A stretch of 64,000 nt of DNA from an uncultured Candidatus Saccharibacteria bacterium. GTDB taxonomy: Bacteria > Patescibacteriota > Minisyncoccia > Phycocordibacterales > WO2-35-19. Under the pieces are notes generated by a model. It saw only the letters and a program-made list of their open reading frames with translations, did no database searches and was not told the DNA's origin. Both the position numbers and the translations under genes were made by a program. Below are positions 2,578 through 64,000 of this stretch, piece by piece. The first letter of the stretch is position 1. Each line of letters begins with the position of its first letter. The stretch spans positions 352-64,351 of the forward strand of contig CAZPQX010000002.1 of assembly GCA_964589445.1 (NCBI GenBank), in the 5' to 3' direction.

Positions 2578-2972
2578 GGTGAAATAGGGGATAGGATAAT
2601 GCAGCGGGCTTTGGAGTTGAAGGAAAATTCGGGTAAATGAAAAGGCTCGGAGAAATCTGTTGATCCTCCGAGCCGAACTTTAGAAGAGTGGTACTTCCTC
2701 TTACGGATGAGGTTAATAAACCTCTGCTCTCCGTAGCTAACCAAACTCGAGTGTTTGGCCAGCCGACCTCCTCCCTCGTACCCACCATTGGGTCGTTTGG
2801 GTTTAGAGCGAGTCGTCTCCAGTGGTGAACTGCGCGCTAACGCGTATAGGGCGACGAAGAACGAACGAGCCCGTGAACGCGCCGCAGCCACCATGCACTA
2901 CCACTCTTCTGTCTATAAGTATAGCATACATGCATAAAAAGTCAAGTGTGTTGTGACTTTGTTTGCTGAAGT
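2578..2972 (+). ncRNA. candidate structured ncRNA (unclassified; RNase P RNA, tmRNA or SRP RNA not resolved)
   Basis: About 390-nt GC-rich island (about 55% GC) in an AT-rich genome, with no SD-led ORF. TTGACC-N17-TATTTT promoter puts the transcript start near GGGGUGAAAUAGGGG. Multiple perfect hairpins (ggctcggag-N13-ctccgagcc; ccaaac-tcgagt-gtttgg). A 7-bp hairpin plus T-run sits at 2938-2970. Confidence 0.35.
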
Positions 2973-3044
2973 GCCCAAAAATGGCTTCTAATATGGCTAT
3001 TTAAAAAATGTGATAAAATTACCCCACGAAAACAATAAGATAAT

Positions 3045-23784: not shown

Positions 23785-26718
23785 ATGAATAATTATGATC
23801 ACAAAGAAATAGATAAGAAGTGGCCCCACTCCGCTGAAGCTTCGCGGGGCAAGCAAGAGTATAATCATCGAGAGATTGAGTCTAAATGGCAAGAAGTTTG
23901 GAATAAAAATAAACTTTATAAAACAGAGGAAGATCCAAGTAAACCCAAGTCTTTTGTTTTGGACATGTTCCCTTATCCTTCTGGAGAGGGCTTGCATGTC
24001 GGTCACCCCAAGGGCTACATCGCTACTGACATTTATTCCCGTATGAAAAAAATGCAAGGGCACAATGTCTTGCACCCAATGGGATGGGATGCTTTTGGAT
24101 TGCCTGCGGAGAACTTTGCTATAAAACATAAAATTCACCCAAGAGTTGCAGTAGAAAAAAATATTCAAAGATTTAAAGAGCAGCTTTCAAAAATTGGTTT
24201 TAACTATGATTGGGGCAGGGAAATAAATACTACAGATCCAGAATACTATAAATGGACACAGTGGATATTTTTGAAGATGCTCGAAAAAGGTTTGGCTTAT
24301 GAATCTTATGAACCGATAAACTGGTGCCCTTCTTGCCAGACTGGTCTTGCAAATGAAGATTTGGAGTCAGATGGTACTTGTGAACGCTGTGGCTCTGTCG
24401 TAGAAAAGCGCCCAATGCGACAGTGGGTTTTGAAAATAACAGAATACGCAGACAGGATGCTTGAAGATTTGAAACTTTTGGATTGGCCTGAATATATAAA
24501 GGAGGCTCAGAGGAATTGGATAGGTAGGAGTGAGGGGATGCTCTTCAGTGCTCCAGTAAAAGATACTGACTTAAAAATTCAAACATTTTCAGCGCATTTC
24601 GAAGGTTTTGCTGCAGATACTTTTGTTGTAATCGCACCAGATCATCCGTTTTTGCCACAGTTGGTAAAAGGGACTGAAAAAGAAAAAGAAGTTTTGGAAT
24701 TTGCTCAAAAGCTCGTGGAAAAAAGATTGGCTCAAGGGTTTGCTGCCGAAAAAGAGTCAGAAGGGATTTTCACTGGTCGTTATATTGTTGATCCGGTGGG
24801 TAATGGAGATTTGCCAATTTGGGTGGCGAGTTATGCGCTCGCTGATTATGGTACGGGTATAGTGAAATGTTCTGCTCATGATGAGCGAGATTTCGCCTTT
24901 GCGAAAAAATACAATGTTCCCTTGAAAGAAGTTTTGATCCCAAGGATGATTGACTATACCAACCCTCATGTTGAAGGTAAAAAGGTAGTTTTTCGAAAAG
25001 CTGTTATTGTACTTCTCAAAAATCCAAAAACTGGTGAAATATTGACTTTGAAATGGAAGAAGCAGCCCTGGGTCACTTTTGTCATGGGAGGAATTGAAGA
25101 AGGGGAAACTCCAGAACAGGCGGCAGAAAGGGAAATAAAAGAAGAAACTGGTTATCAAAATATAAAAAATATAAAAATTTTGGGTGGTCCGACCCAGGCA
25201 GAATTTTTTGCAGCTCACAAGGATGAAAATCGCATCACCAACTCGTGGCTTGCGGTCGCTGAGCTTGCTGATGAAACTCAAGAAAGTTTGTCCGATGAAG
25301 AAGCTGCGATACATGAACTTGAATGGGTTGATCCAGAAAAAATAGATCCTAAAAAAATCCAGCATAGCGAGGCTGCACTTATCTTGGATAGGATGAAAAA
25401 TGGAGTGAAGGCTTGGACTGATATGAAAAACAGTGTACTTTTGGCACCAGAGCAGTTTAAAGGAAAGATTGCGGGAGAAGTACGACAAGAAATAATCGAA
25501 TATTTAGAAAAAAATAAATTAGCTGAAAAAAAGACCACATATAAAATAAAAGATTGGGTGTTTAGTAGGCAGAGATATTGGGGAGAGCCAATACCTGTGA
25601 TCCATTGCGAAGAGTGTGGGGTCGTAGGCGTGCCCGAAAAAGATTTGCCGGTGAGACTTCCTGATGTTGAAAATTATCAGCCGACAGGTACTGGTGAGTC
25701 TCCGCTTGCCAACATTGAGAATTGGGTAAATACAACTTGTCCTAAGTGTGGTGGTGCTGCAAGGCGCGAGACAAACACGATGCCTCAGTGGGCAGGGTCT
25801 TCTTGGTATTATTTGCGCTTCATGGATCCAAAAAATAGTGAGAAACTTGTCGACCCCAAAAAAGAAAAATACTGGGCGCCTGTTGATGTGTATGTCGGGG
25901 GGGACCATGCGGTGAGACATCTTATATATGCTAGGTTTTGGCATAAGTTTTTGTTTGACATTGGCTCTGTGAGTACCGAAGAGCCTTTTGCTAGATTGGA
26001 ATTCTTGGGATTTATTTTGGCAAAAGACGGAAGGAAGATGAGTAAGAGATGGGGGAATGTGATAAATCCTGACGATATAGTTGATTTGTGGGGAGCAGAT
26101 ACCTTGAGGCTCTATGAGATGTTTATGGGCCCATTTGAAAACACGATTGCTTGGAAAGATGAAAGTCTTATAGGTGTCAGGAGATTTTTAGAAAGGTCTT
26201 GGAAATTTGCGCATGGCAATTTTGTAGATCAAGATTCTCAAGAAAAAAATCAAAAAATAGAGTCATTACTACACAAAACAATCAAAAAAGTAACTGAAGA
26301 CATAGAAGGTTTCAAATTCAATACCGCCATTTCTACGATGATGATCTTGCTCAATGAATTTGAGGCGAATAAAGATTTGGTTTCTAAAGAATATGTCGAG
26401 GTATTTTTGAAACTTTTGGCCCCTTTTGCTCCTCATATGGCCGAAGAGATATGGTCTGGTTTTGGAAACCAAAAATCAATACATTTGGAAGAATGGCCAA
26501 AGTTTGACGAGTTAAAAACCAAGGAGACAGAGGTAAAAATTATGGTGCAGGTAAACGGCAGAGTGAGGGCAAATTTCGTTGCAAATGCTGGTATTTCTGA
26601 AGAAGAAGCCAAAAAACAGGCCCTCGCCATGCCAGAAGTTCAGAAGTGGATTCAAGGTCTTAGCATAGAGAAGACAATCTTTGTTGTGGATAAGCTTCTG
26701 AATATCGTTGTAAAATAG
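23785..26718 (+). CDS. leuS: leucyl-tRNA synthetase with an embedded Nudix hydrolase domain
   Basis: HVGHPKGY (HIGH), KMSKRWGN (KMSKS) and a LeuRS-specific anticodon-binding C-terminus. A GGIEEGETPEQAAEREIKEETG Nudix box lies within an insertion of about 150 aa (about nt 24940-25420). Confidence 0.9.
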   Translation: MNNYDHKEIDKKWPHSAEASRGKQEYNHREIESKWQEVWNKNKLYKTEEDPSKPKSFVLDMFPYPSGEGLHVGHPKGYIATDIYSRMKKMQGHNVLHPMGWDAFGLPAENFAIKHKIHPRVAVEKNIQRFKEQLSKIGFNYDWGREINTTDPEYYKWTQWIFLKMLEKGLAYESYEPINWCPSCQTGLANEDLESDGTCERCGSVVEKRPMRQWVLKITEYADRMLEDLKLLDWPEYIKEAQRNWIGRSEGMLFSAPVKDTDLKIQTFSAHFEGFAADTFVVIAPDHPFLPQLVKGTEKEKEVLEFAQKLVEKRLAQGFAAEKESEGIFTGRYIVDPVGNGDLPIWVASYALADYGTGIVKCSAHDERDFAFAKKYNVPLKEVLIPRMIDYTNPHVEGKKVVFRKAVIVLLKNPKTGEILTLKWKKQPWVTFVMGGIEEGETPEQAAEREIKEETGYQNIKNIKILGGPTQAEFFAAHKDENRITNSWLAVAELADETQESLSDEEAAIHELEWVDPEKIDPKKIQHSEAALILDRMKNGVKAWTDMKNSVLLAPEQFKGKIAGEVRQEIIEYLEKNKLAEKKTTYKIKDWVFSRQRYWGEPIPVIHCEECGVVGVPEKDLPVRLPDVENYQPTGTGESPLANIENWVNTTCPKCGGAARRETNTMPQWAGSSWYYLRFMDPKNSEKLVDPKKEKYWAPVDVYVGGDHAVRHLIYARFWHKFLFDIGSVSTEEPFARLEFLGFILAKDGRKMSKRWGNVINPDDIVDLWGADTLRLYEMFMGPFENTIAWKDESLIGVRRFLERSWKFAHGNFVDQDSQEKNQKIESLLHKTIKKVTEDIEGFKFNTAISTMMILLNEFEANKDLVSKEYVEVFLKLLAPFAPHMAEEIWSGFGNQKSIHLEEWPKFDELKTKETEVKIMVQVNGRVRANFVANAGISEEEAKKQALAMPEVQKWIQGLSIEKTIFVVDKLLNIVVK

Positions 26719-51466: not shown

Positions 51467-52858
51467 ATGGATTATAAGCTCACTATAGGCCTCGAAATTC
51501 ATGCCGAATTAAAGACACAGAGCAAAATGTTTTGCTCGTGTAAAAATGACCCTGATGAAAAAAGGCCTAATTTTAATATTTGTCCCGTATGTCTGGCTCA
51601 CCCAGGGACACTGCCTGTGATCAATAAGGAGGCGGTAAAGAATGTGCTCAAGGTGGGGCTAGCTCTCGGAGGCACGCTGGCTGATGAAACAGAGTTTGAT
51701 AGGAAGAATTATTTTTATCCAGATATACCAAAGGGTTATCAAATAAGTCAGTACAAGTATCCTCTTGTCTCAGGAGGAGAGCTCCTCGGGGTGAAGCTAA
51801 CCAGGATCCATCTAGAGGAGGACACGGGCAAATCTAGTCATGAGGGAGACGTGAGCCTTGTTGACTTTAATAGAGCTGGGCTCCCTCTTATGGAGCTAGT
51901 GACAGAGCCATGTATACATAGCAGTAAGGATGCCGCTCTTTTTGCCATGGAGCTACAGAAGGTTTTGCAATACTTAGGGGTATCTTCTGCAAATATGGAG
52001 AAGGGTGAGATGAGACTCGAGGCTAATATATCTGTAAGCAAAGATGGCACTCTTGGTACAAAGGTAGAAGTCAAGAATCTAAACTCATTTAAATCGGTTG
52101 AAAAGGCAATAGAGCACGAACTAAAAAGGCAGGTAGAGCTGATAGAGGGAGGTGGTCAGGTGATCCAGGAGACAAGGGGTTGGAATGACTCAAGCGGCAC
52201 CACCTTCTCTCAAAGGGCCAAAGAGACCTCCAAAGATTATAGATATTTCCCAGATCCTGACCTTCCAAAACTTAAAATAAGTGAAATACCCGAGTTTTCT
52301 GTGGAATCTTTAAGGCAAAGTGTCGGTGAAATACCAAGTGAAAAAAGAGAAAGGTTTAAGAAGGATTATGGTCTTAAAGACGCTGATGTTGAATTTTATA
52401 TACAAAATTCCTCCCTTACTCGCTTTTTTGAAGAGTGTGCGAGCCTACTTATAGATAAAAAGGGTTTCCAGACCTTATCTAATCTTGTGGTCACTGATAT
52501 AGCATCTATGGGGGAAGGGTATAAGGATTTAAATACTAAAAATGTGGCTGAACTCGTGGATATGTTTTTGAAGGGCGATATATCGTCTAGGGTAATGAAA
52601 GACATCTTGCCTAAGATAAGCAACGAATCCCCTAGAGCACTAGCTGATAGGGAGGGTTTGTTACAAAAAAGTGATGGCGCGGAGGTAGAGAAGGTGGCAC
52701 AAAGGATCATAGAGGCCAATCCCTCTGTCGTCGAGGAGTACAAATCAGGTAAGGTTTCTAGTATCCAATTTTTACTCGGGCAAGCCATGAAAGAGACCAA
52801 GGGGTCTATAAATCCTCAGGTTCTGAGGTCTACTTTTGAGAAACTTCTTTCTGACTAA
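51467..52858 (+). CDS. gatB: aspartyl/glutamyl-tRNA amidotransferase subunit B
   Basis: MDYKLTIGLEIHAEL...MFCSC and C-terminal YqeY-like domain. Confidence 0.9.
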   Translation: MDYKLTIGLEIHAELKTQSKMFCSCKNDPDEKRPNFNICPVCLAHPGTLPVINKEAVKNVLKVGLALGGTLADETEFDRKNYFYPDIPKGYQISQYKYPLVSGGELLGVKLTRIHLEEDTGKSSHEGDVSLVDFNRAGLPLMELVTEPCIHSSKDAALFAMELQKVLQYLGVSSANMEKGEMRLEANISVSKDGTLGTKVEVKNLNSFKSVEKAIEHELKRQVELIEGGGQVIQETRGWNDSSGTTFSQRAKETSKDYRYFPDPDLPKLKISEIPEFSVESLRQSVGEIPSEKRERFKKDYGLKDADVEFYIQNSSLTRFFEECASLLIDKKGFQTLSNLVVTDIASMGEGYKDLNTKNVAELVDMFLKGDISSRVMKDILPKISNESPRALADREGLLQKSDGAEVEKVAQRIIEANPSVVEEYKSGKVSSIQFLLGQAMKETKGSINPQVLRSTFEKLLSD

Positions 52859-53450
52859 TATTTTTTTCTAGAAATTCTTTGTATTTTAAAGGTCCTCCAA
52901 TAGGCTCAAGTATTTCTTCTGTATTTAAAAGTTCACCAAACCTGTTGGTTTTTAGATAGTCATATTTGCTTGACCATGTATCTTTTTCTGTATTTTGGTG
53001 TAGTGTGCAGGATGTTTTGGCTAGGTCTATTTGAAGTATTAAATCAGCACTAAAAGGTCCATTAAATACGTGACCTTTCTTTGAGTATTTAGAATTAAAG
53101 TATTTGCTGTAGGCGGTAGATATGCGATGCATATATACAGAAAGGATTGATTCTTGTATGTTTTTTATAAGTAGAGAGAAGCTATTTTTTTGGACTGAGA
53201 AGGCTAGTAGACTTATGCTGCGGTCCTCTAGTATAGGGTCTAATTTAGCTTGGGTGGTGGTGAATTTACCCTTGCGTAGGTACATCCGTGTAGACCAAGA
53301 GCTATTGTGTATAGGGGTAGGGGACTGGAAGTGGGTGATCAGAAATAGAAAGCGGGCCACATCTTCTTCGTCTATAAAAATATTTTCTTTGTTTAAACCA
53401 AGGTTTGATATTAGGTAGTATTTATCTTTTTCAAAAACTTCGTAACGCAT
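52830..53450 (-). CDS. IS200/IS605-like Y1 (HUH) transposase homolog (REP-associated tyrosine transposase-like), probably catalytically degenerate
   Basis: YYLISNLG...IFIDEEDVARFL (compare YHIxxRG...IF.DD.DR..FL). KKGHVFNGPFSADLI (compare GHLFQGRFKS.L). HUH His residues and C-terminal catalytic Tyr motif not conserved. Convergent 29-nt overlap with gatB. Confidence 0.55.
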   Translation of the reverse strand: MRYEVFEKDKYYLISNLGLNKENIFIDEEDVARFLFLITHFQSPTPIHNSSWSTRMYLRKGKFTTTQAKLDPILEDRSISLLAFSVQKNSFSLLIKNIQESILSVYMHRISTAYSKYFNSKYSKKGHVFNGPFSADLILQIDLAKTSCTLHQNTEKDTWSSKYDYLKTNRFGELLNTEEILEPIGGPLKYKEFLEKNISQKEVSQK

Positions 53451-53699
53451 CTTATTATTTGTTCTCCCATGTCGGAAGCCTCATTTTTATCTTGTATGAT
53501 TTCATTATAACTTATTCTCACTCACTGTTATTTTAGAGTGTGGATAAGTATCTAAAGCTCGGGTTTGAATATCTAACGCTGAGCGTTTGATATAGATTTT
53601 AGTATAAAAATATTGTAAAAAAGGGTTTTTCGAGAGGCTTGAAAATAGGGGTAAGCTCAGTTTGGGGTGGGGCCAAAATAGCCAATCTCGCCTGGACCT

Positions 53700-54100
53700 A
53701 CCTTCGGAAGGGAGAGGAGTGGTATTTTATGATATATTTTTTGACTTTTTACAAAATAAATTATAAAAACAAAAATTATTATTTAGTCTAATTTTCTACT
53801 AAATAATTTTTGAGATACAAAAATTATATTTTTTTCATCTTATATTCTTTGAAGAGTTTTATTTTATTTTTAAATTTTATTCTTTTTAAAAAATTTGAAT
53901 AATTATCTGTATTAAAAAAATTATTTTAAATATAAAAATATTTTATTATTTAAATTTTTATATTTAGGAAGTGTCAAAAATATTTTAAAATTTAAAAAAA
54001 GATAGTATCTATTTTCGTTTATGGTAAATAGGACAATAGGGGACTCATAAAATTTTAATTTATATTTTTTAATAAAAATTAATTTTTATTATTTATCATT
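53700..54100. other. extreme AT-rich non-coding tract (about 85-90% AT)
   Basis: About 400 nt of A/T runs with no ORF, flanked by DnaA-box-like 9-mers. Confidence 0.7.
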
Positions 54101-54102
54101 TT

Positions 54103-54417
54103 TTAATGAAGAGTGTTGTTGTCTGGTGCGCTATCACTTTCTGATTTTATGTCTCTATCATCCTCTTCACTTTCTTCATTTTCAAGGTGCTGTACAACTA
54201 GCTTTCTTACGAGAGACTTTTTCTCTTTTATTAAGAATGGACTGGTTTCTATAAGATCAATCACTTGGTCTATATCTTCTACTCTATATATACGGTAGTT
54301 ATTGAATGGATGTCTGTATGCTTTGAGCTTACCGTTCTTGTCCCAATTGCGCAAGGTGAGCTTAGATACTCCAAGGATAGATGCTGCGTCTTTTATGGTT
54401 ATGTATTTATTGCTCAT
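54103..54417 (-). CDS. excisionase/MerR-family HTH DNA-binding protein (HTH_17-like)
   Basis: YITIKDAASILGVSKLTLRNWDKNGKLKAYR...YRIYRVEDI, with an acidic C-terminal tail. Confidence 0.65.
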   Translation of the reverse strand: MSNKYITIKDAASILGVSKLTLRNWDKNGKLKAYRHPFNNYRIYRVEDIDQVIDLIETSPFLIKEKKSLVRKLVVQHLENEESEEDDRDIKSESDSAPDNNTLH

Positions 54418-54902
54418 TGTATTTAAAGGTTATTTTATATAAAAATAAACATATATAAACCTTAATAAACATTATAAACTTATATTAATAAATATTAAAG
54501 TTTATATATGTGGAAAACTAAAAATATATCAATATAGATATTGCTTACCATGACATTCTGTAGTGGGGTTTACTTGGTTTAGGTCTTGTCTTTCTGCATT
54601 AAGGGCGACAACCTGATTTTCCTTGTGAAGCCCGATAGACTCTTGTGTGCGTAAAATCCAAATAAAATGGGTAATCTGTATATTTAAGTCGCTGACCAAG
54701 GGGCTTCTAGTTCTGAGAGGTGTTTTTTTGCGACTTTGAGGGCAATATTTTGTACTTCATGAGTCATTATGCGATGTTTGGGTATATTCTAAAAAAATAA
54801 AAAATGTGAAAAAATTTTGAAAAAATATCGGTTGACTTTTTTAAAAAAAATGGAGATATGTCTCGGATGAATGAAGAAATACTTTTTTCAAATAACACTT
54901 AA

Positions 54903-54911
54903 TTATCCACA
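54903..54911 (+). promoter_or_regulatory. consensus DnaA box TTATCCACA
   Basis: Perfect 9-mer. A second perfect copy lies in reverse orientation at 53539-53547. Relaxed matches at 54509-54517 and 54805-54813. Confidence 0.45.
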
Positions 54912-54954
54912 CTTTTTTCTTTATCTCGTCTTCACGAGATATTAAAATAAATAG

Positions 54955-57900
54955 GTGCAAGGATCTCTGAATTTTGAAGGCAAAAAATATATATCAGCAA
55001 AAGATGCTGCTAAGCAATTTGGCTATACAAGTGACTACATTGGTCAGCTTTGTCGTGGTGGTAAAATAAAATCAAAGCTTGTGGGTAGGGTGTGGTATGT
55101 ACTCGAATCAGAAATATCTTCTTACAAAAAAGTTCATCTCGCTCCAGGTAGACCATCTAAAAAAAATCTTTCAAACAAAAAAACACTACACTCATCTTCA
55201 TTTAAGAAAACAAAAAAAATTGCAGATTCAAAAGAAGATGTTTTGTTAGAAAATAAAAAAGAAATTTATTTAAATTTAGAAACACCTAAAGAATCACCAA
55301 AATACAACGTATTTCCTGAAATATCTCGGGTTGCCGAGATTGATTCAAAAAAAGTCTTATATATAGAAGACAATTCAGAGCTATTCCCAACACTCAAAAG
55401 AAACATAGACCTCGAATACATAAAAAGACATGCTTTTGATAACCTAGAAAAGGCAAAAAGCGGCAAATATAAAGCGACCAAATTTGATAAAACAGTCGCT
55501 TCTTCGCTTGTGGCAGTAGTCGTACTTTCTTTGGGCACTTTTGGTCTTTTTGAAGGGTCAAATTTCATAAACAGACTAAAGACAGAGTCTCGAGGTTCTG
55601 CTTTTGAAGAAGTTTCGCTGCTCTATTCTCCTCTCGTTAGAGATATAAACAGATCTGTGGCTCAAATTTCAGAAAAAACAGGAGTTTCTAGTTCACAGTT
55701 GGCTCTCTCTGTCGCATCAGATAGCAATACAAAATTAGTTTTTGATTTTGTAAGGAATATTGGAGAAAAAGTATTTGGCAGGTTCTTTGGCAAAGAGACT
55801 GTTTTGGTGGATTCTGGCGAATCAAACACGGTAAAAACAATAGTTATAAAAGAGACTTCTTATCCTTCTGCTGCTCCCGCACAAAATACAGTATCTACCC
55901 AAGCAAAGACAGTCTTCTTACCTTCTTTTGATAAGGAATACATAAACTCACTCATCGAAGAAAAATTTGTGGCTCTCAAAAACAATTTCCTCACTAGCAC
56001 CATTGCTCCAAATGTAAACAGGTACTATGTGTCAAGACAAAATGATGAAATAGTCGGCAATATAGGAAGTGTGGTTGCCAATCTCGAAGACAGGATAGAC
56101 GATGCAATCTCAAATATATCACTCACTGACCTCAATCTTTCTACTCTTTCAGTATCAGGTACCTCTATATTCTCTGGAAATGTGTCTCTAAATGGCTCGA
56201 CCACAGCAAGCACACTCTCTGCCACGGATTGGCTTTCTGTAGGTACTACCACAAATCATGCCACTCTCACAGTGGATGGTGCTTTTTACTTGGCGCAAGT
56301 TACCCCTCCGGGAGACACATCAAACAGGCTTTACAATGACGGAGGTGATTTGTATTGGAATGGCTCTATACTCGCTGGCTCCGGAGTGGGCAATTGGTCT
56401 ACAGATGGCACTAGTGTATGGAGAGCTTCAGGAAAAGTGGGTATAGGTACATCTACTCCTTCAACAGCTTTAGTTGTTCAAGGAAATGGTCTGACTTATG
56501 TAAATACAAATACAAATGCAGGAAGTTCTACAATATCTTTTGGAGGAGGCAACAATAATCGCCCTGTCTTTAATATGGGCCCCTTGGGTACTCCAGATGA
56601 ATTTAAAATATGGAACCTTGGATATTACCAGATGGGCGCTACAAATTCACAAGGATTAGCTCTTATGACCAACAATACCAATCGCTTGTATATAACAAGT
56701 GCTGGAAATGTAGGTATTGGAACAACAAGTCCAGGTAGTTTACTACAAATAGAAGGGAACCCATCTGGAGCAATACTTACTCTAAGGAGGGCTTCAACTG
56801 CAGGGGATTTGCCAATTTACTTTACAAAATCAAATGGTGGGCTCCAGGGAGCCATAGTTTCTTATAATGCAGGAGATATTTCTCTACATACAACTGATGG
56901 GGCAGAAAAAGTCAGATTGTTAAATAATGGAAATTTGGGTATTGGCACCACATCACCATTTGCAAAACTTTCTGTCGAGTCGACTGCGGGGGCTGCACAG
57001 TTTGCTATTGGCTCATCAACCGCCACTTCTTTTATTGTCGACAAAAATGGAAATGTTGGGATTGGTATAGTGACCCCTACACAAGCATTGGATGTAGTGG
57101 GAAGCGTACAAGCTTCAGGTAGTTTCTATTCTGGAAATGGTATAGGCATATCTCCAACTCAAACTACCATGTATAGTGGCTACAATTTTGGTTGGAATGC
57201 AAACGCTACTCGCGCAGGAAGCCCTGATGTAAATCTTTCAAGGGGTGGTGTATCAAAATTGTATTTAGGCAACGGCACATTAGGTGACTTTACTGGTACT
57301 TTGATTGCGGGAAACATAGGAGTCGCTACTACTTCTCCCTCTGCAAAACTTTCTATAAAGGCGGATGGTACTGGTACTGGCAGAGCATTTACTATTTCTG
57401 ACTCTGCTGATGCCGAGAAACTCACTGTACTTGATAATGGAAGTTTGCTCTTAGGTACTGGCTCACAGCTAGCAAGCTCGGGCAAGATAAGATTGACGCT
57501 TGGTGATGGTATCAGGTGGAGGAGAAATGATTTGGTAAATGATATGGGCATTACATACGATGCATCAGGTTCTTTTTGGTACGGTACAGCATCTTCTTCA
57601 TCTGCTCCTTTCCTTATAAATTCAAGCGGAAATATAGGGGTGGGTATATCTAGTCCTACAAGCCTTTTGACCTTGTATGGTGCGAGCCAGACCATCACAC
57701 TTCAAAATCCAACTACAGGTAGTACTGTAAGTGATGGCTACTACTTGGGGCTAGGTGCCGGCACCACAGATATGTATTTGTGGAATAGAGAGAGTGGTGC
57801 TGTCTATTTTGGTCAAAACAATGGTACTGTTATGACTTTAAATAATGGGAATGTCGGTATTGGTACTACGACTCCAGTGACCAAACTTACAGTTTATGGT

Positions 57901-60900
57901 ACTTCAGCTGATGCTTCTGCTTTGCTTGATAACGGCATATTTACAGTAAGAGGAAGCAACGGAGCTTATCTCCAAATTGGATCACAGACTGGCGAGCCTT
58001 ACGGTCTATATTTGCAGGGTAAAGATAGGACAAACAATGGTACTACATACCCTATCTTATTAAATCCAGTTGGAGGAAATGTGGGTGTTGGTACCACTAC
58101 TCCTTGGGGTAAGCTTTCGATCACAAATACGGGTAGCGGCCCAAGTTTTATCGTCGAAGACAGCACATCTCCTGATGCTTCTCCTTTTGTAATAGATGCG
58201 AGTGGGAATGTGGGGGTGGGGACGGTTGTTGCAGATAACAAGCTTCATATTGTTGATACACTGGCTAGCAATTTGCGCTACGGACTTAAATTAAGCAATT
58301 CGGCAGACGGAGTAGGTGCTGCAACTGGAATTTTATTTGAAGTTCAAGGTGGTGCAGCTGGAAGAGGAAAAGGTGGTCTTATATATCAAAATGATACTTC
58401 TTTAGGTTGGAATAGAGGAGATTTTATGTTTCTACAGAATTCAACAGCTGACGCCACAAACCCTACTGCTTCTAATGCAGTACTTACTATAAAAAATAAT
58501 GGTAATGTCGGTATTGGTTCGACCTCACCATTTGCAAAACTTTCTGTTGAATCGACTGCGGGAGCATCACAGTTTGTGGTCGGGTCATCGACTGCAACGC
58601 AATTCATTGTCGACAAGAATGGGAATGTGGGAGTGGGGACTGCGAATCCAACTTCCTTGTTACAAATATACGGTCAGGGCGTTGACATTTTGCAAGTTGG
58701 TAATGGTGTAGATACAAATACAAGTTTGAATGTACAAAATAGAGCTTTGTTTGGTTATAACCAAACAAGAGCGGCTGCTACTATACAAGGCATATCAGGT
58801 AGGGGTATAGATTTTAATGTTAATAACAATACATTTGGTTCGGGTCAGGCTATGGTAATCACAAGTGCTGGTAACGTCGGAGTCGGTACCACATCTCCTT
58901 TGGGCTTGCTCTCAGTAAACGCAAATGGCCTTGCGAGCGGCGCACCTCAGTTTGTCGTCGGCTCAAGCACGGCGACAAACCTTATAGTGGCTAATGATGG
59001 AAATGTGGGCGTAGGTATGACAAGTCCTTCATACAAGCTGGATGTGAATGGAGACATAAGATACGGTGCAAACGGTACTTTGAGGATAAATGGTGCCGGA
59101 AACTTTAAATTAGATAGCGATGAACTTTTCTTTGGTGGAGGCTCTCTTGGGACGATAAAAACAAACTGGGGTGGTGGAGGCCTAAGTTTGATAGCTGGAG
59201 GCAACAATCAGACAAGTGGCGATATCTCTTTGATAACAAATACAGCTTCTGGTGATGTGACAAGACTTATAATAAAAAGTGATGGAAATGTCGGCATCGG
59301 CACCACATCACCATACGCAAAGCTCTCTGTAGTAGGAGATGCAGCAATCACTGGCAATGTGAGAGTGGCTGGGCTCACTGCTACAGGCACAGTCACTTTC
59401 TCCGGTATCACTGGCTCTGACCAGTGTCTCCAAGTAGACGCAAACGGAGTAGTCGCTGGTACAGGAAGTGCTTGCGGCTCTAGTAGTGGTGGGTCAGCTG
59501 GCGGCACATGGGCGACTACCACATCACAAGTTGCGGGTAGGTTTGTAAACTATTCACTCAACTCTACTGACCTGGTAGCGATAGGCAGCAACTCGACCAC
59601 CACAGCAGAATTTTGGTTCGACCCAAACACTTCGACTTCATATCTTTCTGGAAATGTGGGTATCGGGGTTACATCTCCAGGAAATAAATTACATATAACA
59701 GGTGGAGGTATTTCTATAGGTAACAATGCGGCTCTAACAGACAGAGGTTTGATAAGTGTACATGATTCTTCAGATGCAAGAATAAATATTACTAAGGCAG
59801 GTGTGGATGGTTATAGATTGGAAACAAATGGAACTGCTGGTTCTTCTTATTTCACTATTGGAAGGGATAATGGAAGCTCTGATACTGGTAGTACTAATGC
59901 ATTTTTGAATATAACTCAGGCAGGCAATGTGGGCGTTGGCTCTACCACTCCAATGGATAAATTAACTGTTGTGGGAGGGGACATAAGTCTTTCAAGAAAT
60001 CAATACATTAGATTTAGATCTGAATCCTCTTCTATACAATCAGCAGCTATAGGTGGCACTTCTAGCAACGATCTTGCTTTTTACACAAATGGCCTAGCTG
60101 AAGGTATGAGACTTACTTCTTCTGGATATTTGGGTATTGCCTCTACTTCTCCTTGGGGGCTCCTATCCGTTAACCCAAATGGACTTTCAAGCGGCGCACC
60201 ACAATTCGTCGTCGGCTCAAGCACAGCTACCAACTTCATTATTGCGAATAATGGAAATGTGGGTGTGGGTATCACAAACCCAACTGCAAAATTAGATGTG
60301 AACGGTTCAATCTATTTGAGAACCGGGAGTTTTTTCTCAGATACTTATAGTGGTTATTCTGGAGGTGCTGTTACTCACAATATTCCATCAAGTTCATATT
60401 TGAGGTTTGTTATGGGTTCTCCAACTTCCTCTTTCCAAATACAAGATTCTTCTGCTGTGCCTCTATTAAAAATGGAAGCAAACGGAAGATTGGGGCTTGG
60501 AAGCAGCACCCCTTGGGCACAACTTTCAGTCCACCGAAATACTTCTGACACATCATACTCTCCACTCTTCGCTATCGCTTCTTCGACTGCTAGCGGCACG
60601 ACGACAAACTTCATTGTGGCAAATAATGGGAATGTCGGCATCGGGACTACTAATCTAACTGATAACTTAACCCTTAAACCATCATCAGCAGGTAAGGGAA
60701 TGGTGGTAAGGGAATCAGACGATGGTAATGAAGCAATTAGACTACTTGGTTTTTCTGGTGGTGGAAATCTAAGCCTCCAAACTGGAGGAGTAAATACAAT
60801 TAGCTTTGATGCCACAAGTGCCTCAGGGATATCATATTTTAATGCTGGGAATGTCGGCATCGGCACTACTACACCAAATAGGAAACTAACTGTATTTTCT

Positions 60901-63900
60901 GATTCTACAGTAGGGCAATCTCAATTAAGACTTGGTTTTAGTGATCAATTCTCTTGGGATATAGGAAGAGACAACGGTTCTTCTGATGGTAGATTGATGT
61001 TTACAAGTAATCACAATGGTACAACAGCAGAAAGAATGTCAATTTTATCAAACACCGGCAATGTAGGTATTGGTACTACATCCCCTTGGGGCTTGCTATC
61101 CGTAAATGCAAACGGACTTTCAAGCGGTGTGCCTCAATTTGTAGTCGGCTCATCTACAGCGACAAACTTCATTGTGGCGAATGGTGGGAATGTAGGTATA
61201 GGTACAGCAGAACCTACAGAAAAATTATCAGTAAATGGCAATATTCAAATTCCTTCAGGTAGTGCTATTCGTCTTTCGTCACTAGCAGGAAGCCCCCAAA
61301 TATTCTCATCTGGTTCCACAAATATTAGTATCAGCCCTGCCTCAAATGGAACTGTGGTACTTGGCTCTGTTGCGGGTATAAAAGCAGGAGTTGGTACTAC
61401 AACGCCATTTGGTGCACTTGCAGTTAACAGTATTGCTGGTGTGCCTGGATTTACTGTTGGCTCATCAACAGGAACATACTTTATTGTCGACAAGAATGGA
61501 AATGTGGGTGTGGGGACGACGAGTCCATTCAGTCATTTTGAGGTTCAAGGTTCCGGGATATATGACGCATACAATACTATTACCGCATCAGGAGGGAATC
61601 AGGCGGCATTATATATCAGACGTGTACAATCGGGAGGTTCGTATAACAACGGCTGGACTTGGTATATTCCTGCTTCATCTAAAGATTTGCGGCTTTATGG
61701 CGACGCGGGCGGGGATTTGTTAACGGTGCAATCAACTACCGGTAACGTGGGTATTGGTACTACAAGTCCTTCGTCGGCTTTGCATGTTTCTAACTCAAGT
61801 GCCAATCCTCTGCTAACATTTGAGAGGCCTGGTGTTTCGACTGTTAATTTTGGGAATTCTGGTTCTGTTTGGACATGGTCTTCAAGTGCGGCATCTGCAA
61901 ACCACTTTGCATTTGCGCCAGCTGGAGTAGAGGCGATGAGGATACAAAATGGTGGCAACGTCGGTATCGGTACTACAGCTCCAGGAGACAAGCTTGAAGT
62001 TTCTGGAAATGTTTTTGCTTCAGCCTTCAACTCTACAAGTACTGTCTCTAGGTATAATTCAATTGGTGGAGTATTTATGGCAGGAAATGGTGGAAGTTCT
62101 TATGCTGAAATACGAGCCTACTCAGATGTTGCTGGTACTGGAAAGATTTTGTCTCTAAATTCAAATGGTGGCAATGTCGGTATTGGTACTACAAGTCCAA
62201 CCAATACACTAGCTATTTCAGGTATTGGTCTTGATATAAATCGTGATGGTGCAGAGCCTAATGTTGTATTTAGATCAACTGGGGCACAAGTTTCTCAGAT
62301 TAGAGGACTAGTCGGTGGTGGTTTGAGATTTACAAACGGTAATTCAAGTTCTGAATGGGCAAAAATTGATTCTAGTGGAAATTTTGGTGTTGGTTCTTCT
62401 ACTCCTTGGGGACTCCTCTCTGTAAATGCAAATGGGCTATCTAGTGGCGCACCACAATTCGTAGTCGGTTCATCTACAGCAACCAACTTTATCGTGGCGA
62501 ATGGTGGAAACGTTGGTGTAGGATTGCTCAGCCCAAGTTCAAGACTTGATGTCCAAGGTGTGGCTGGTGCAACTAATATATTTAGAGTTGCCTCTTCTAC
62601 TGGCTCTGATCTCCTCACTGTAGATAAGGCGGGAAACGTTTGGATAGGTACGACAGTTGTAGAACAAAGGACTCTTACTCTCCAAGCTACTGACCCTGTA
62701 TTTTATTTGAAATCATATGGAGGTTCTTCTGCACAAATTAAATATGACGGGGGATCTACTTTCACTTTGACTGACGGAACAACAAACATTTTGCAATTTA
62801 ATAATTCTGGAAGCGGTAATGATATTGATATTGTCGCTAGAAACAGTTCTGATTCTGATATTGGTTTTAATACAGGAAATGGGCAAAGAAGAATGACTGT
62901 AAAATATGATGGAAATGTCGGCATCGGTACTACTACACCACAAACCAAGCTTGTTATTTACGATACTGATTATGCGACAAACAACAGAGCCAACTTAGAG
63001 ATAATGACTTCTTCTAGTCAGGCGGCTGGCGTAGGAGGTTCGATTGCTTTTGGTGGCAGAAATGATCAGGGTACTTCTCCTTCAAATAGTCCATATATTT
63101 TTGGAAAAATAGAAGGTATAAGTGAGGGCTCAACTGGCTGGGCTGGTGCACTTGCATTTTCTACTACAGAAGGAAGTTCGGGTATTACAGAAAAATTGAG
63201 AATAACTAGTGCAGGTTATACAGGTGTGGGTTCTTCTACACCTTGGGGACTCCTCTCCGTCAATGCAAATGGACTATCTAGCGGAGCTCCTCAGTTTGTC
63301 GTGGGCTCATCTACAGCAACCAACTTTATCGTGGCGAATAATGGAAATGTGGGAGTAGGGACTGCTAGCCCATCTCATAAGTTAACTTTGGCCAGTGGAA
63401 ATTTTGCAGTCGAAACCGGAAACATGTATTTAGCTTCTGGTAATAGTATTCATTTTGATTATGGTTCAAGTAATAGTTATTACATCCAAAAGAATGGAAC
63501 TAACTTATATCTTGGTACTGGCGGAAGTTTTGCAATGATGAATGGTAATGTAGGTGTCGGCACCACAACACCAGGTGACTTACTTACACTCTCATCTCTA
63601 AACCCAAGAATTGATTTGTGGGCAAATACTTCTACTTCAACTAGAGTGGCTTTGACTTCTTATGGAAACCTAGGATTTGCAACTTTGCAAACTAGAGGTG
63701 CTTTTGGTTTGAGACTCGGTACAAATAGTGGTGAACATTTGAATATAGATACTTCAGGTAATGTAGGTATTGGGACGTCATCACCAACTTACTTGTTAAA
63801 TGTTGTAGGTGCTACTGGTGGAGTTTCTGGAATCACTACACAAAATACCAGTGCCTCATCGTATGGTATGCTTAATGTCTTTAACAAAGGAGCAAAGGGT

Positions 63901-64000
63901 TTAAATGTTTACGCTCTCGGTTCTACATACGGCAACACCTTCTTTGGTGGGGTTACTGGGAATAACCAATTGGTACTTGAGGCAAATTCAGGAACTAGTA
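54955..64000 (+). CDS. giant cell-surface protein (>3,015 aa, 3' partial): N-terminal excisionase-like HTH, single TM, then about 30 tail-fibre-like G-N-V-G-I-G-T-T-S-P repeats
   Basis: Uninterrupted frame from GTG 54955 (in-frame TAG at 54952) to the window end, verified codon by codon for the first 700 nt and spot-checked downstream. Not in the ORF track because no stop falls within the window. All listed minus-strand ORFs from 55266 to 62948 are its antisense shadows. Confidence 0.8.
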   Translation, partial: MQGSLNFEGKKYISAKDAAKQFGYTSDYIGQLCRGGKIKSKLVGRVWYVLESEISSYKKVHLAPGRPSKKNLSNKKTLHSSSFKKTKKIADSKEDVLLENKKEIYLNLETPKESPKYNVFPEISRVAEIDSKKVLYIEDNSELFPTLKRNIDLEYIKRHAFDNLEKAKSGKYKATKFDKTVASSLVAVVVLSLGTFGLFEGSNFINRLKTESRGSAFEEVSLLYSPLVRDINRSVAQISEKTGVSSSQLALSVASDSNTKLVFDFVRNIGEKVFGRFFGKETVLVDSGESNTVKTIVIKETSYPSAAPAQNTVSTQAKTVFLPSFDKEYINSLIEEKFVALKNNFLTSTIAPNVNRYYVSRQNDEIVGNIGSVVANLEDRIDDAISNISLTDLNLSTLSVSGTSIFSGNVSLNGSTTASTLSATDWLSVGTTTNHATLTVDGAFYLAQVTPPGDTSNRLYNDGGDLYWNGSILAGSGVGNWSTDGTSVWRASGKVGIGTSTPSTALVVQGNGLTYVNTNTNAGSSTISFGGGNNNRPVFNMGPLGTPDEFKIWNLGYYQMGATNSQGLALMTNNTNRLYITSAGNVGIGTTSPGSLLQIEGNPSGAILTLRRASTAGDLPIYFTKSNGGLQGAIVSYNAGDISLHTTDGAEKVRLLNNGNLGIGTTSPFAKLSVESTAGAAQFAIGSSTATSFIVDKNGNVGIGIVTPTQALDVVGSVQASGSFYSGNGIGISPTQTTMYSGYNFGWNANATRAGSPDVNLSRGGVSKLYLGNGTLGDFTGTLIAGNIGVATTSPSAKLSIKADGTGTGRAFTISDSADAEKLTVLDNGSLLLGTGSQLASSGKIRLTLGDGIRWRRNDLVNDMGITYDASGSFWYGTASSSSAPFLINSSGNIGVGISSPTSLLTLYGASQTITLQNPTTGSTVSDGYYLGLGAGTTDMYLWNRESGAVYFGQNNGTVMTLNNGNVGIGTTTPVTKLTVYGTSADASALLDNGIFTVRGSNGAYLQIGSQTGEPYGLYLQGKDRTNNGTTYPILLNPVGGNVGVGTTTPWGKLSITNTGSGPSFIVEDSTSPDASPFVIDASGNVGVGTVVADNKLHIVDTLASNLRYGLKLSNSADGVGAATGILFEVQGGAAGRGKGGLIYQNDTSLGWNRGDFMFLQNSTADATNPTASNAVLTIKNNGNVGIGSTSPFAKLSVESTAGASQFVVGSSTATQFIVDKNGNVGVGTANPTSLLQIYGQGVDILQVGNGVDTNTSLNVQNRALFGYNQTRAAATIQGISGRGIDFNVNNNTFGSGQAMVITSAGNVGVGTTSPLGLLSVNANGLASGAPQFVVGSSTATNLIVANDGNVGVGMTSPSYKLDVNGDIRYGANGTLRINGAGNFKLDSDELFFGGGSLGTIKTNWGGGGLSLIAGGNNQTSGDISLITNTASGDVTRLIIKSDGNVGIGTTSPYAKLSVVGDAAITGNVRVAGLTATGTVTFSGITGSDQCLQVDANGVVAGTGSACGSSSGGSAGGTWATTTSQVAGRFVNYSLNSTDLVAIGSNSTTTAEFWFDPNTSTSYLSGNVGIGVTSPGNKLHITGGGISIGNNAALTDRGLISVHDSSDARINITKAGVDGYRLETNGTAGSSYFTIGRDNGSSDTGSTNAFLNITQAGNVGVGSTTPMDKLTVVGGDISLSRNQYIRFRSESSSIQSAAIGGTSSNDLAFYTNGLAEGMRLTSSGYLGIASTSPWGLLSVNPNGLSSGAPQFVVGSSTATNFIIANNGNVGVGITNPTAKLDVNGSIYLRTGSFFSDTYSGYSGGAVTHNIPSSSYLRFVMGSPTSSFQIQDSSAVPLLKMEANGRLGLGSSTPWAQLSVHRNTSDTSYSPLFAIASSTASGTTTNFIVANNGNVGIGTTNLTDNLTLKPSSAGKGMVVRESDDGNEAIRLLGFSGGGNLSLQTGGVNTISFDATSASGISYFNAGNVGIGTTTPNRKLTVFSDSTVGQSQLRLGFSDQFSWDIGRDNGSSDGRLMFTSNHNGTTAERMSILSNTGNVGIGTTSPWGLLSVNANGLSSGVPQFVVGSSTATNFIVANGGNVGIGTAEPTEKLSVNGNIQIPSGSAIRLSSLAGSPQIFSSGSTNISISPASNGTVVLGSVAGIKAGVGTTTPFGALAVNSIAGVPGFTVGSSTGTYFIVDKNGNVGVGTTSPFSHFEVQGSGIYDAYNTITASGGNQAALYIRRVQSGGSYNNGWTWYIPASSKDLRLYGDAGGDLLTVQSTTGNVGIGTTSPSSALHVSNSSANPLLTFERPGVSTVNFGNSGSVWTWSSSAASANHFAFAPAGVEAMRIQNGGNVGIGTTAPGDKLEVSGNVFASAFNSTSTVSRYNSIGGVFMAGNGGSSYAEIRAYSDVAGTGKILSLNSNGGNVGIGTTSPTNTLAISGIGLDINRDGAEPNVVFRSTGAQVSQIRGLVGGGLRFTNGNSSSEWAKIDSSGNFGVGSSTPWGLLSVNANGLSSGAPQFVVGSSTATNFIVANGGNVGVGLLSPSSRLDVQGVAGATNIFRVASSTGSDLLTVDKAGNVWIGTTVVEQRTLTLQATDPVFYLKSYGGSSAQIKYDGGSTFTLTDGTTNILQFNNSGSGNDIDIVARNSSDSDIGFNTGNGQRRMTVKYDGNVGIGTTTPQTKLVIYDTDYATNNRANLEIMTSSSQAAGVGGSIAFGGRNDQGTSPSNSPYIFGKIEGISEGSTGWAGALAFSTTEGSSGITEKLRITSAGYTGVGSSTPWGLLSVNANGLSSGAPQFVVGSSTATNFIVANNGNVGVGTASPSHKLTLASGNFAVETGNMYLASGNSIHFDYGSSNSYYIQKNGTNLYLGTGGSFAMMNGNVGVGTTTPGDLLTLSSLNPRIDLWANTSTSTRVALTSYGNLGFATLQTRGAFGLRLGTNSGEHLNIDTSGNVGIGTSSPTYLLNVVGATGGVSGITTQNTSASSYGMLNVFNKGAKGLNVYALGSTYGNTFFGGVTGNNQLVLEANSGTS

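Follow-up and report, generated by a model that had tools for sequence, protein, structure and literature searches.

The stretch analysed here (the window) comprised 64,000 nucleotides of contig CAZPQX010000002.1 (positions 352 to 64,351, forward strand; assembly GCA_964589445.1) from an uncultured Candidatus Saccharibacteria bacterium. Its end was occupied by the 5' part of a giant gene on the plus strand (54955..64000), a single stop-free frame of 3015 codons in translation that continues beyond the window end. As stated in an earlier note, which was made from the sequence alone, the gene was absent from lists of open reading frames (ORFs) because the frame leaves the window. The gene codes for an N-terminal helix-turn-helix (HTH) domain of the excisionase/MerR type, a lysine-rich linker, one transmembrane (TM) helix, a juxtamembrane neck and a long region of fibre-type repeats. 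The gene gatB was located at 51467-52858, about 2.1 kb upstream of the giant gene. A gene for a 104-aa MerR/excisionase-type regulator was encoded divergently at 54103..54417 on the minus strand.

The start codon was assigned to the GTG at 54955, because residue 1 of the giant protein lined up with Met1 of its homologues (MNNSLVFDGRKYISAK..., MDGILNFDGKKYISAK...). An in-frame TAG immediately preceded it. Three Logan contigs, found via the neighbouring 104-aa protein and independently assembled from other sequencing runs, were 100%, 100% and 99.8% identical to the window in this region. Two of them entered the giant gene and terminated inside it, after 2515 and 1100 codons, and the third stopped upstream. 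The repeats of the giant gene are the reason why assemblies break there. The earlier note had raised a stop or frameshift splitting the HTH domain from the repeats. None was found: the frame was open, and both contigs that enter the gene showed no frameshift and the same junction. Since this junction was identical across independent assemblies, it is not an assembly accident. Five copies of a 41-aa repeat unit showed 90% identity at the protein and 78% at the DNA level, with a proportion of synonymous differences (pS) of 0.60 versus 0.074 for non-synonymous ones (pN), which indicates old repeats subject to purifying selection. A search for the exact 65-mer at the window end gave no match in genome contigs or metagenome contigs. 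The window holds roughly the first two-thirds or so of the gene.

The HTH domain comprised aa 12-57 (54988..55125, plus strand), the region matched by Pfam HTH_17. It consisted of a strand, the helix-turn-helix, a beta-hairpin wing and a C-terminal helix, which is the fold of the HTH_17/excisionase type, and the HTH_17 signature positions R34, G36, R45 and W47 were kept. Its nearest structural neighbours in the fold comparison were DNA binders, namely Xis, BldC, a small terminase subunit, MerR proteins and RacA. A profile of the HTH module had no match among PDB sequences; the placement came from fold comparison only. The HTH_17 model (PF12728) scored 17.7 bits with the whole protein, 24.9 with the first 80 aa and 25.6 with the first 66 aa. 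The HTH_17/excisionase-like N-terminus proposed in the earlier note was thus supported by the fold and by the HTH_17 alignment over aa 12-57, but not by the score, which stayed below the Pfam gathering threshold of 27 bits. Homologous modules exceeded this threshold in P0123 (35.9 bits), P0218 (30.7 bits) and P0007 (28.4 bits), and 8 of 20 modules matched HTH_17 at E ≤ 0.01.

The earlier note had also described this domain as paralogous to the 104-aa protein. That protein scored 39.3 bits with Pfam MerR and 35.1 bits with HTH_17 and was assigned to TIGR01764. It shared 11/30 identities with the module in BLASTP (E 4e-4) and remained undetected by the hidden Markov model (HMM) of the module family even at E 10, so the claim shrank to a resemblance at the superfamily level. 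It was 48% identical to a syntenic 80-aa protein of locus L004.

The linker (aa 58-180; 55126..55494, plus strand) is predicted to be cytoplasmic. Lysine accounted for 15.7% of the first 210 aa, and the membrane-proximal part of the linker was conserved in orthologues, as aligned with the one in locus L018. The TM helix (aa 181-201, VASSLVAVVVLSLGTFGLFEG; 55495..55557, plus strand) was the sole segment in 3015 aa with a Kyte-Doolittle hydropathy above 1.6 (value 2.18). This agreed with the earlier note, which had placed one TM helix about 180 aa into the protein. Eight K+R were counted in the 30 residues preceding the helix versus four after it, and the N-terminal 180 aa held 38 K+R versus 23 D+E. 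The bias of K+R before the helix fits the positive-inside rule and indicates an N-in/C-out topology, which was assigned from Kyte-Doolittle hydropathy and charge bias alone. The predicted extracellular neck (aa 202-492; 55558..56430, plus strand) was marked by the motif APNVNRYYV(S/T)RQND. It (APNVNRYYVSRQND) was conserved in P0001-P0004 and in orthologous loci and had no Pfam or NCBIfam match.

The repeat region (aa 493-3015; 56431..63999, plus strand) contained 33 capping-loop motifs of the type GNVGIG..P...L. The pattern GNVG[IV]G was detected 33 times in its loose and 26 times in its strict form between aa 493 and 2935, compared with 0.30 and 0.009 in 1000 shuffles. The spacing of the motifs was 40-122 aa, except for one gap of 266 aa. 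After the TM helix, the composition was 14.8% G, 12.6% S, 10.6% T and 8.6% N. No Pfam match was obtained within the repeats. The whole giant protein had two matches in the PDB, both to Bdellovibrio fibres, and a profile of 33 repeat units matched 8OND (Bd2133) with E 8.3e-23, followed by 8OML, 8OL4, 8OJN and 8ON4; nothing but mosaic adhesive trimer (MAT) fibres of Bdellovibrio was retrieved. The PHROG tail-fibre families 9942 and 18345 matched all three thirds of the ectodomain with E values of 1e-22 to 2.5e-32. A monomer AlphaFold (AF2) model of aa 2005-2135 was all-beta with a pLDDT of 76.9. The tail-fibre-type repeats described in the earlier note were therefore found again, while its wording of a beta-helical adhesin, to be compared with pectate-lyase-like models, was too loose, as the specific relatives are trimeric MAT and phage tail fibres. 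MAT fibres are intertwined trimeric beta-helices with capping loops of the same motif (Caulton et al. 2024, PMC10769870), and residues 662-1031 of Bd2133 (370 aa) measure 142 Å (PMC10769870). Scaled from Bd2133, the 2,523 aa of repeats in the window would be roughly 97 nm long.

A search with the ectodomain yielded 1,295 proteins at E ≤ 1e-10. The best 120 were mostly 1,500-4,500 aa long, with two slightly shorter. Those named by source were nearly all Patescibacteria (Taylor-, Campbell-, Nomura-, Kaiser-, Doudna-, Sung- and Moranii-bacteria), and the exceptions were single matches labelled Acetobacteraceae, Bacillota and Omnitrophica. Many of the best 120 contained Peptidase_S74 (PF13884), and some were named 'tail fiber domain-containing protein'. 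The N-termini differed: 26 of the 120 carried the HTH module and one TM helix, 27 an ordinary signal anchor and 67 neither module nor early hydrophobic segment. The latter 67 are probably N-truncated or of another kind. Complete proteins with HTH, TM helix, fibre and S74 were P0194 (4,407 aa), P0197 (3,136 aa), P0218 (3,067 aa) and P0123 (1,699 aa). Because these complete relatives have S74, the unseen C-terminus of the window protein most likely carries S74 as well, possibly followed by tip domains. In complete relatives, S74 was not terminal: it was located at 2741-2793 in P0218 and at 2852-2908 of 3136 aa in P0197, with 230-330 aa more following. In P0218 an Ig-like domain (Bact_surface_Ig-like) was present after S74, at 2947-3020. 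Unlike in phage fibres, the residues after S74 would depart with the chaperone upon autoproteolysis.

The N-terminal part was searched on its own as well. With the first 480 aa as query, no identical protein was found. The Patescibacteria relatives aligned either with the whole N-terminal region at 35-38% identity or with the HTH domain alone at 46-62% identity, followed by unrelated sequence. The module of the window aligned with 19 other modules from 18 homologues. All 18 had a single TM helix 100-310 aa after the HTH domain, sometimes at the extreme C-terminus, and one of them showed a second, weaker hydrophobic segment further along. Invariant residues of the module family include Y24, D27, Y28, G30, Q31, L32, C33, R34 and W47. 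A profile of the 20 modules retrieved 7,279 clusters (50% identity) at E ≤ 1e-3, and 4,326 remained at E ≤ 1e-10. The members ranged from tail-anchored proteins of 260 aa to giants. Among the best 149 members, most had 300-400 aa and two tandem modules, and 140 had exactly one TM helix. The median number of residues after the TM helix was 48 (141 of these 149 representatives, in which a TM helix was detected). Duplicated modules were also found in P0177 and P0005, and the 4,310-aa P0169 held three copies. Across 408 unique modules, conservation peaked at the turn and helix 2 (GY..DYiGQLaR), together with the Trp of the wing. NCBIfam offered no model for the family. The giant gene, treated in the earlier note as a singular oddity, is instead one member of a very large, syntenic and conserved family of more than 7,000 clusters.

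The genomic position of the family was analysed by scanning the peptide pattern [SKG]DY[IV]GQLCR over species-representative genomes. This gave 441 confirmed loci, and the locus counts given here refer to the best 80. Nearly all of these were labelled as Patescibacteria-type metagenome-assembled genomes (MAGs) or 'bacterium'; the exceptions were two Gammaproteobacteria and one Azotimanducaceae. In 68 of the 80 loci, gatB was located within 4 kb upstream. The window has the features that define the gatB-linked family, which are a GY.SDY[IL].(Q/R)L.R module, one downstream TM helix and gatB within a few kb upstream. An HTH-TM gene was also found just downstream of gatB in every protein that was looked up (P0012, P0017, P0018, P0014, P0005 and the 270-aa neighbour of P0194). 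The MerR-like gene was divergent in 31 of the 80 loci, and no other consistently adjacent partner gene was present across loci. Two layouts were distinguished. Type A, to which the window belongs, consists of gatB, the divergent small MerR-like gene and a long HTH-TM gene; type B consists of gatB, a tail-anchored HTH-TM protein of 250-320 aa and a second, long HTH-TM gene. The gene order (secA ... obg) gatB, MerR-like gene on the opposite strand and HTH-TM gene was kept across many Paceibacteria-type genomes (window 51467-54417; L004, L006, L008-L090). The neighbours of the giant gene were housekeeping genes in conserved synteny (dnaK, dnaJ and gatB), and phage genes were not present in its neighbourhood. 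In this, the module family has the character of a core locus passed on vertically rather than of a mobile adhesin island. A second conserved context comprised bipA-adk-ispA-ftsJ, a giant gene and Laminin_G_3 proteins and contained P0197 and P0173, two complete relatives. Every named close homologue and syntenic locus came from Paceibacteria/Parcubacteria-type MAGs, as expected from the attribution of the window to a candidate phyla radiation (CPR) cell in the earlier note. From the sequences seen so far, the HTH module with one TM helix appears as a large Patescibacteria-type family, so far found only there and almost always just downstream of gatB.

In some type A loci, the gene was split into a short HTH-TM gene, a signal-peptide cassette and a fibre gene standing apart, whose product has a signal anchor of its own and GNVGIG motifs. 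This arrangement was found in L004, L043, L089 and the locus of P0017, where the fibre gene comprised 3,504 aa. Anchor and fibre are split in these genomes and fused in the window, which links them functionally. The cassette of the split loci (L004 8972-13127; also L012, L029, L037, L043, L079 and L089) codes for S/T-rich proteins of about 225 and 250 aa and for a protein of 310-405 aa that has a signal peptide and, at its C-terminus, a TM helix. It looks like a conserved surface-assembly module. One seemingly complete orthologue of 1281 aa (L018 849-4694, Zambryskibacteria MAG) was set aside, because a run of N (X in translation) closes its reading frame; in public MAGs, 'short' versions can thus be scaffolding artefacts.

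The region upstream of the giant gene contained three conserved elements. A TTATCCACA box was located at 54903..54911 (plus strand), 52 nt upstream of the start codon. The palindrome TATCTCGT-cttc-ACGAGATA followed at 54922..54941 (plus strand), directly upstream of the -10-like hexamer TAAAAT (54943..54948, plus strand), which ends 6 nt before the GTG in a leaderless-type geometry. By k-mer counting, TTATCCACA was present in 22-23 of 27 orthologous intergenic regions, compared with a shuffle maximum of 12-19. It is identical to the textbook DnaA-box consensus. Counting copies with at most one mismatch within 140 nt upstream in the 80-locus set, the box preceded 64 of 69 long HTH-TM genes (41 exact) and 19 of 31 MerR-like genes, versus 0 of 66 gatB genes and 15 of 150 other ORFs. 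Its distance to the start codon was -47 to -54 in most type A loci, among them the window with -52, and for type B it was -68 to -79. The window held three exact copies versus 0.51 expected, at 54903-54911(+), 53539-53547(-) and 26685-26693(-). The palindrome of type A loci had the form (A)TCTCGG-N4-6-CCGAGA(T) and abutted GTATAAT, and that of type B was TTCGGATATCCGA, immediately before the ATG. One or the other was found upstream of 47 of 69 long HTH-TM genes versus 0 of 66 gatB genes, 0 of 150 other ORFs and 0 of 31 MerR-like genes. In 14 of 31 orthologous loci, a -10-like hexamer ended 6-8 nt short of the start codon, and no Shine-Dalgarno sequence was visible before the GTG. Hexamer spacing and the missing Shine-Dalgarno sequence suggest that the mRNA of the giant gene is leaderless or nearly so, with transcription starting at or next to the GTG.

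The proteins acting on these elements were considered separately. Binding of the HTH module to the TTATCCACA box was unsupported, since variants of the box (CCACA vs CCCCA) did not co-vary with the adjacent HTH sequences, and both HTH subtypes were located behind the same box. The simpler candidate is a universal factor, for instance DnaA. A palindrome between the -35 position and the -10 hexamer occupies the classic position of a MerR operator. For this reason the divergent MerR-like protein is the likeliest binder of the type A palindrome, a putative operator. The AT-rich intergenic region with its DnaA-type boxes was rejected as a replication origin: the cumulative GC skew rose steadily over the window, and the long ORFs in the 50 kb upstream, excluding those nested in longer ORFs, were nearly all on the plus strand. 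Rfam had no match in 53000-56000.

Taken together, the giant gene is best read as encoding a trimeric adhesion fibre that is anchored in the membrane and has HTH domains, probably of the DNA-binding kind, clustered at its base, an interpretation that we hold with moderate confidence. The product, from a CPR bacterium of the Paceibacteria type, would be a giant membrane protein of type II (N-in, C-out). By homology, its ectodomain would fold as an intertwined homotrimeric beta-helix fibre and would serve as an adhesin towards host, prey or surfaces. The missing C-terminus would bear the Peptidase_S74 intramolecular chaperone, possibly then tip domains, as in P0194, P0197 and P0218. The TM helix would act as the anchor, in place of the signal peptide and surface-binding N-domain of the Bdellovibrio MATs and of the virion-attachment end of phage fibres; such an anchor suits a cell without outer membrane. 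Expression would be driven by a promoter with the TTATCCACA box and the palindromic operator, the latter probably served by the divergently encoded MerR-like protein. The least certain part of the model concerns the cytoplasmic side. Trimerisation would gather three HTH domains below the fibre base, and these may bind DNA at the membrane, tethering or regulating a DNA locus as membrane-bound ToxR does, rather than relaying a signal. Membrane-tethered DNA binding, wholly inferred, is favoured because the fold neighbours are DNA binders, the HTH_17 signature is kept, the linker is basic and the module is often duplicated in tandem.

Several points weigh against this interpretation. Adhesion and host binding are derived from relatives only, and the C-terminus lies outside the window, so that the tip and the S74 domain were unobserved for the window protein. 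The 15 best Foldseek matches of the monomer model were all MAT fibres, yet with E values of about 1e-3 and TM-scores of at most 0.33. Such a poor superposition is expected for a lone chain of an intertwined trimer and is consistent with homology, without being decisive. On the cytoplasmic side, the HTH domain of the window falls under the gathering threshold of HTH_17. The TTATCCACA box showed no co-variation with the HTH helix, which gives no direct support for binding of the module to elements of its own promoter. The recognition helix is near-invariant across thousands of proteins and varies only between locus types. Such constancy is not the usual behaviour of transcription factors, and a shared protein partner would explain it just as well. 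Together with the small or missing ectodomain of most members, it points to a common target and to a core role in keeping something at the membrane.

A shared partner would be provided if the winged helix were a protein-protein adaptor that links the fibre base, and likewise the members lacking an ectodomain, to a common cytoplasmic protein of the cytoskeletal, chaperone or secretion type. Precedents exist: the HTH domain of RodZ binds MreB, and the MerR-fold protein CbpM binds a J-domain. The near-invariance of the turn and helix 2 over the 408 unique modules, even between paralogues of one locus, would point to one common ligand, and many family members are tail-anchored and without a sensor domain. 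Against an adaptor stand the DNA-binding structural neighbours, the canonical HTH_17 positions and the strongly basic linker. Xis and BldC bind DNA head to tail, an arrangement that the tandem copies of the module call to mind, and the MerR-like gene is the only partner gene found adjacent with consistency. The adaptor, the main rival of DNA binding at the membrane, is possible but has a rather low probability in our estimate. One-component signalling in the style of ToxR and CadC, in which engagement of the fibre with a host alters the tethered HTH and switches a regulon, possibly via its own promoter, appears doubtful. The topology of a DNA-binding-type domain, one TM helix and a large ectodomain would allow it, the promoter of the gene contains a conserved palindrome, and the two locus types differ jointly in palindrome type and HTH subtype. 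Phylogeny confounds this last difference, as does whether the MerR-like gene is present. Membrane-bound ToxR acts by tethering DNA to the membrane (PMC10629549). The HTH is not of the OmpR/PhoB type, though, allosteric transmission along a fibre of about 100 nm is implausible and most family members have no ectodomain able to sense. Since most members have almost no ectodomain, a sensor-to-DNA logic cannot be the core function of the family.

Release of the HTH as a latent transcription or DNA-binding factor by regulated proteolysis, loosely like MyRF or anti-sigma systems controlled by regulated intramembrane proteolysis, is very unlikely. MyRF combines a DNA-binding domain with a trimerising domain of the S74 type, and the relatives of the giant protein likewise join a DNA-binding-type domain with S74. 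A gene for a PrsW-type protease was located near one homologue. The MAT capping-loop motif also retrieves MyRF (Caulton et al., PMC10769870). The S74/ICA domain of MyRF is on the same membrane side as the DNA-binding domain, placed between it and the TM helix. In the giant protein, S74 would lie at the far extracellular end, so that its self-cleavage cannot free the HTH. The locus had no conserved protease gene, and no cleavage motif was identified. The least probable reading, already close to refuted, is an assembly chimera or a tail-fibre gene of a prophage or tailocin read through from an upstream small HTH gene. The repeats do break short-read assemblies, both Logan contigs that enter the gene end inside it, and the repeats match phage tail-fibre families. 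Set against this are the identical HTH-repeat junction in independent assemblies, the same fused architecture in dozens of other species and the conserved synteny with the housekeeping genes dnaK, dnaJ and gatB, free of phage genes. The repeat copies also differ at 60% of synonymous sites and are not collapsed duplicates.

The membrane-anchored fibre favoured here resembles several characterised systems in part. The MAT fibres of Bdellovibrio bacteriovorus, for example Bd2133 (8OND), Bd1334, Bd2439 and Bd3182 (PMC10769870), have the same shaft repeat and GNVGIG..P...L motif. Like the giant protein they are cell-encoded and not viral, have relatives with S74 or other tip domains and presumably recognise the surface of another cell. 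All 21 Bdellovibrio MATs begin with a signal peptide and a conserved beta-rich N-terminal domain of about 130 aa (PMC10769870). In contrast to these fibres of about 1,000 aa, which have a signal peptide and a surface-binding N-domain and sit on a diderm predator, the giant protein exceeds 3,000 aa, has neither signal peptide nor MAT N-domain and carries a TM anchor preceded by a cytoplasmic winged helix. Phage tail fibres with C-terminal Peptidase_S74, such as T5 pb1 and the K1F endosialidase, share the repeats (PHROG 9942 and 18345) and, with the full-length relatives, PF13884. They differ in their virion gene cluster and virion attachment domain, as compared with the chromosomal housekeeping neighbourhood and membrane anchor of the giant gene. 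ToxR, CadC and TcpP are likewise bitopic and N-in, with a cytoplasmic DNA-binding-type domain and one TM helix. Their winged helix is of the OmpR/PhoB type and is joined to a small periplasmic sensor, whereas the giant protein combines an excisionase/MerR-type domain with a structural fibre. The ToxR/CadC-like assignment of the earlier note therefore holds for the topology (one TM helix, N-in/C-out) but not for the family. The soluble excisionase, BldC and MerR N-terminal domains (HTH_17, TIGR01764) and the chromosome anchor RacA differ from the module, which is always followed by a TM helix and has an invariant signature of its own, GY.SDYIGQLCR, undetected by any NCBIfam model. Very large membrane-associated proteins with a proposed role in a fibrous surface and host attachment were described for the Absconditabacteria Vampirococcus lugosii (PMC8080830) and Strigamonas methylophilicida (PMC13059738). 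These contain other adhesion domains (fibronectin, integrin, PKD, DUF11 and so on). The main text of both papers does not mention a helix-turn-helix, and that of PMC13059738 does not mention 'tail fiber'.

Known before were thus the MAT/phage fibre type, giant CPR surface proteins (PMC8080830, PMC13059738) and membrane-tethered DNA binders (ToxR; PMC10629549). In the full-text literature, provisionally and with incomplete coverage, no link between Patescibacteria giant proteins and MATs, no HTH-TM anchor, no family of more than 7,000 clusters, no gatB synteny and no conserved promoter were found. The arrangement of HTH, TM helix and fibre is, judging from the sequences, common in CPR bacteria. 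A large part of bacterial diversity belongs to CPR/Patescibacteria, which presumably live attached to other cells, and to our knowledge essentially nothing has been established on how Paceibacteria-type lineages bind their hosts. Giant 'hypothetical' surface proteins of Patescibacteria are recognised here as homologues of solved MAT and phage tail fibres, which gives an immediate structural model and a route to receptor prediction from the tips. Where the N-terminus could be identified, about half of the fibres were anchored by the module, which places a DNA-binding-type domain on the cytoplasmic side. The module family has a fixed chromosomal position and a conserved promoter, and no curated family model was found; its conservation suggests a core function. 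A more speculative extension, which we regard as unlikely, is that the HTH-TM module is a Patescibacteria-wide device coupling the cell surface to DNA. A trimeric fibre of about 100 nm ending in three tethered DNA-binding domains would hold a chromosomal locus or incoming DNA at the host contact, or switch a TCTCGG-N4-6-CCGAGA regulon on engagement. If true, adhesin-linked DNA-binding systems tethered to the membrane would form a new class, encoded beside gatB at a conserved core locus.

Further observations concerned the neighbouring ORF and the intergenic spacer. A 206-aa ORF at 52830-53450(-) overlapped the 3' end of gatB by 29 nt and was also called as a gene in the Logan contigs. It had no Pfam or NCBIfam match. 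An exact TTATCCACA box was located 89-97 nt upstream of its start, and the ORF may thus belong to the same regulon as the HTH-TM gene. A copy of TTATCCACA with one mismatch was located on the minus strand about 100 nt upstream of the start codon of the MerR-like gene. The intergenic spacer comprised 537 nt and was otherwise very AT-rich, and its middle (54529-54780) looked richer in G+C by eye. This part contained short ORFs only (56 aa on the minus strand, no family match) and may represent what is left of a gene or a small RNA without annotation. An inverted repeat of 26 nt with an 11-nt spacer (54449-54474 / 54486-54511), located upstream of the MerR-like gene, was 85% complementary. It overlapped the best promoter-like site on the minus strand (54498-54471) and may be an autoregulatory operator.

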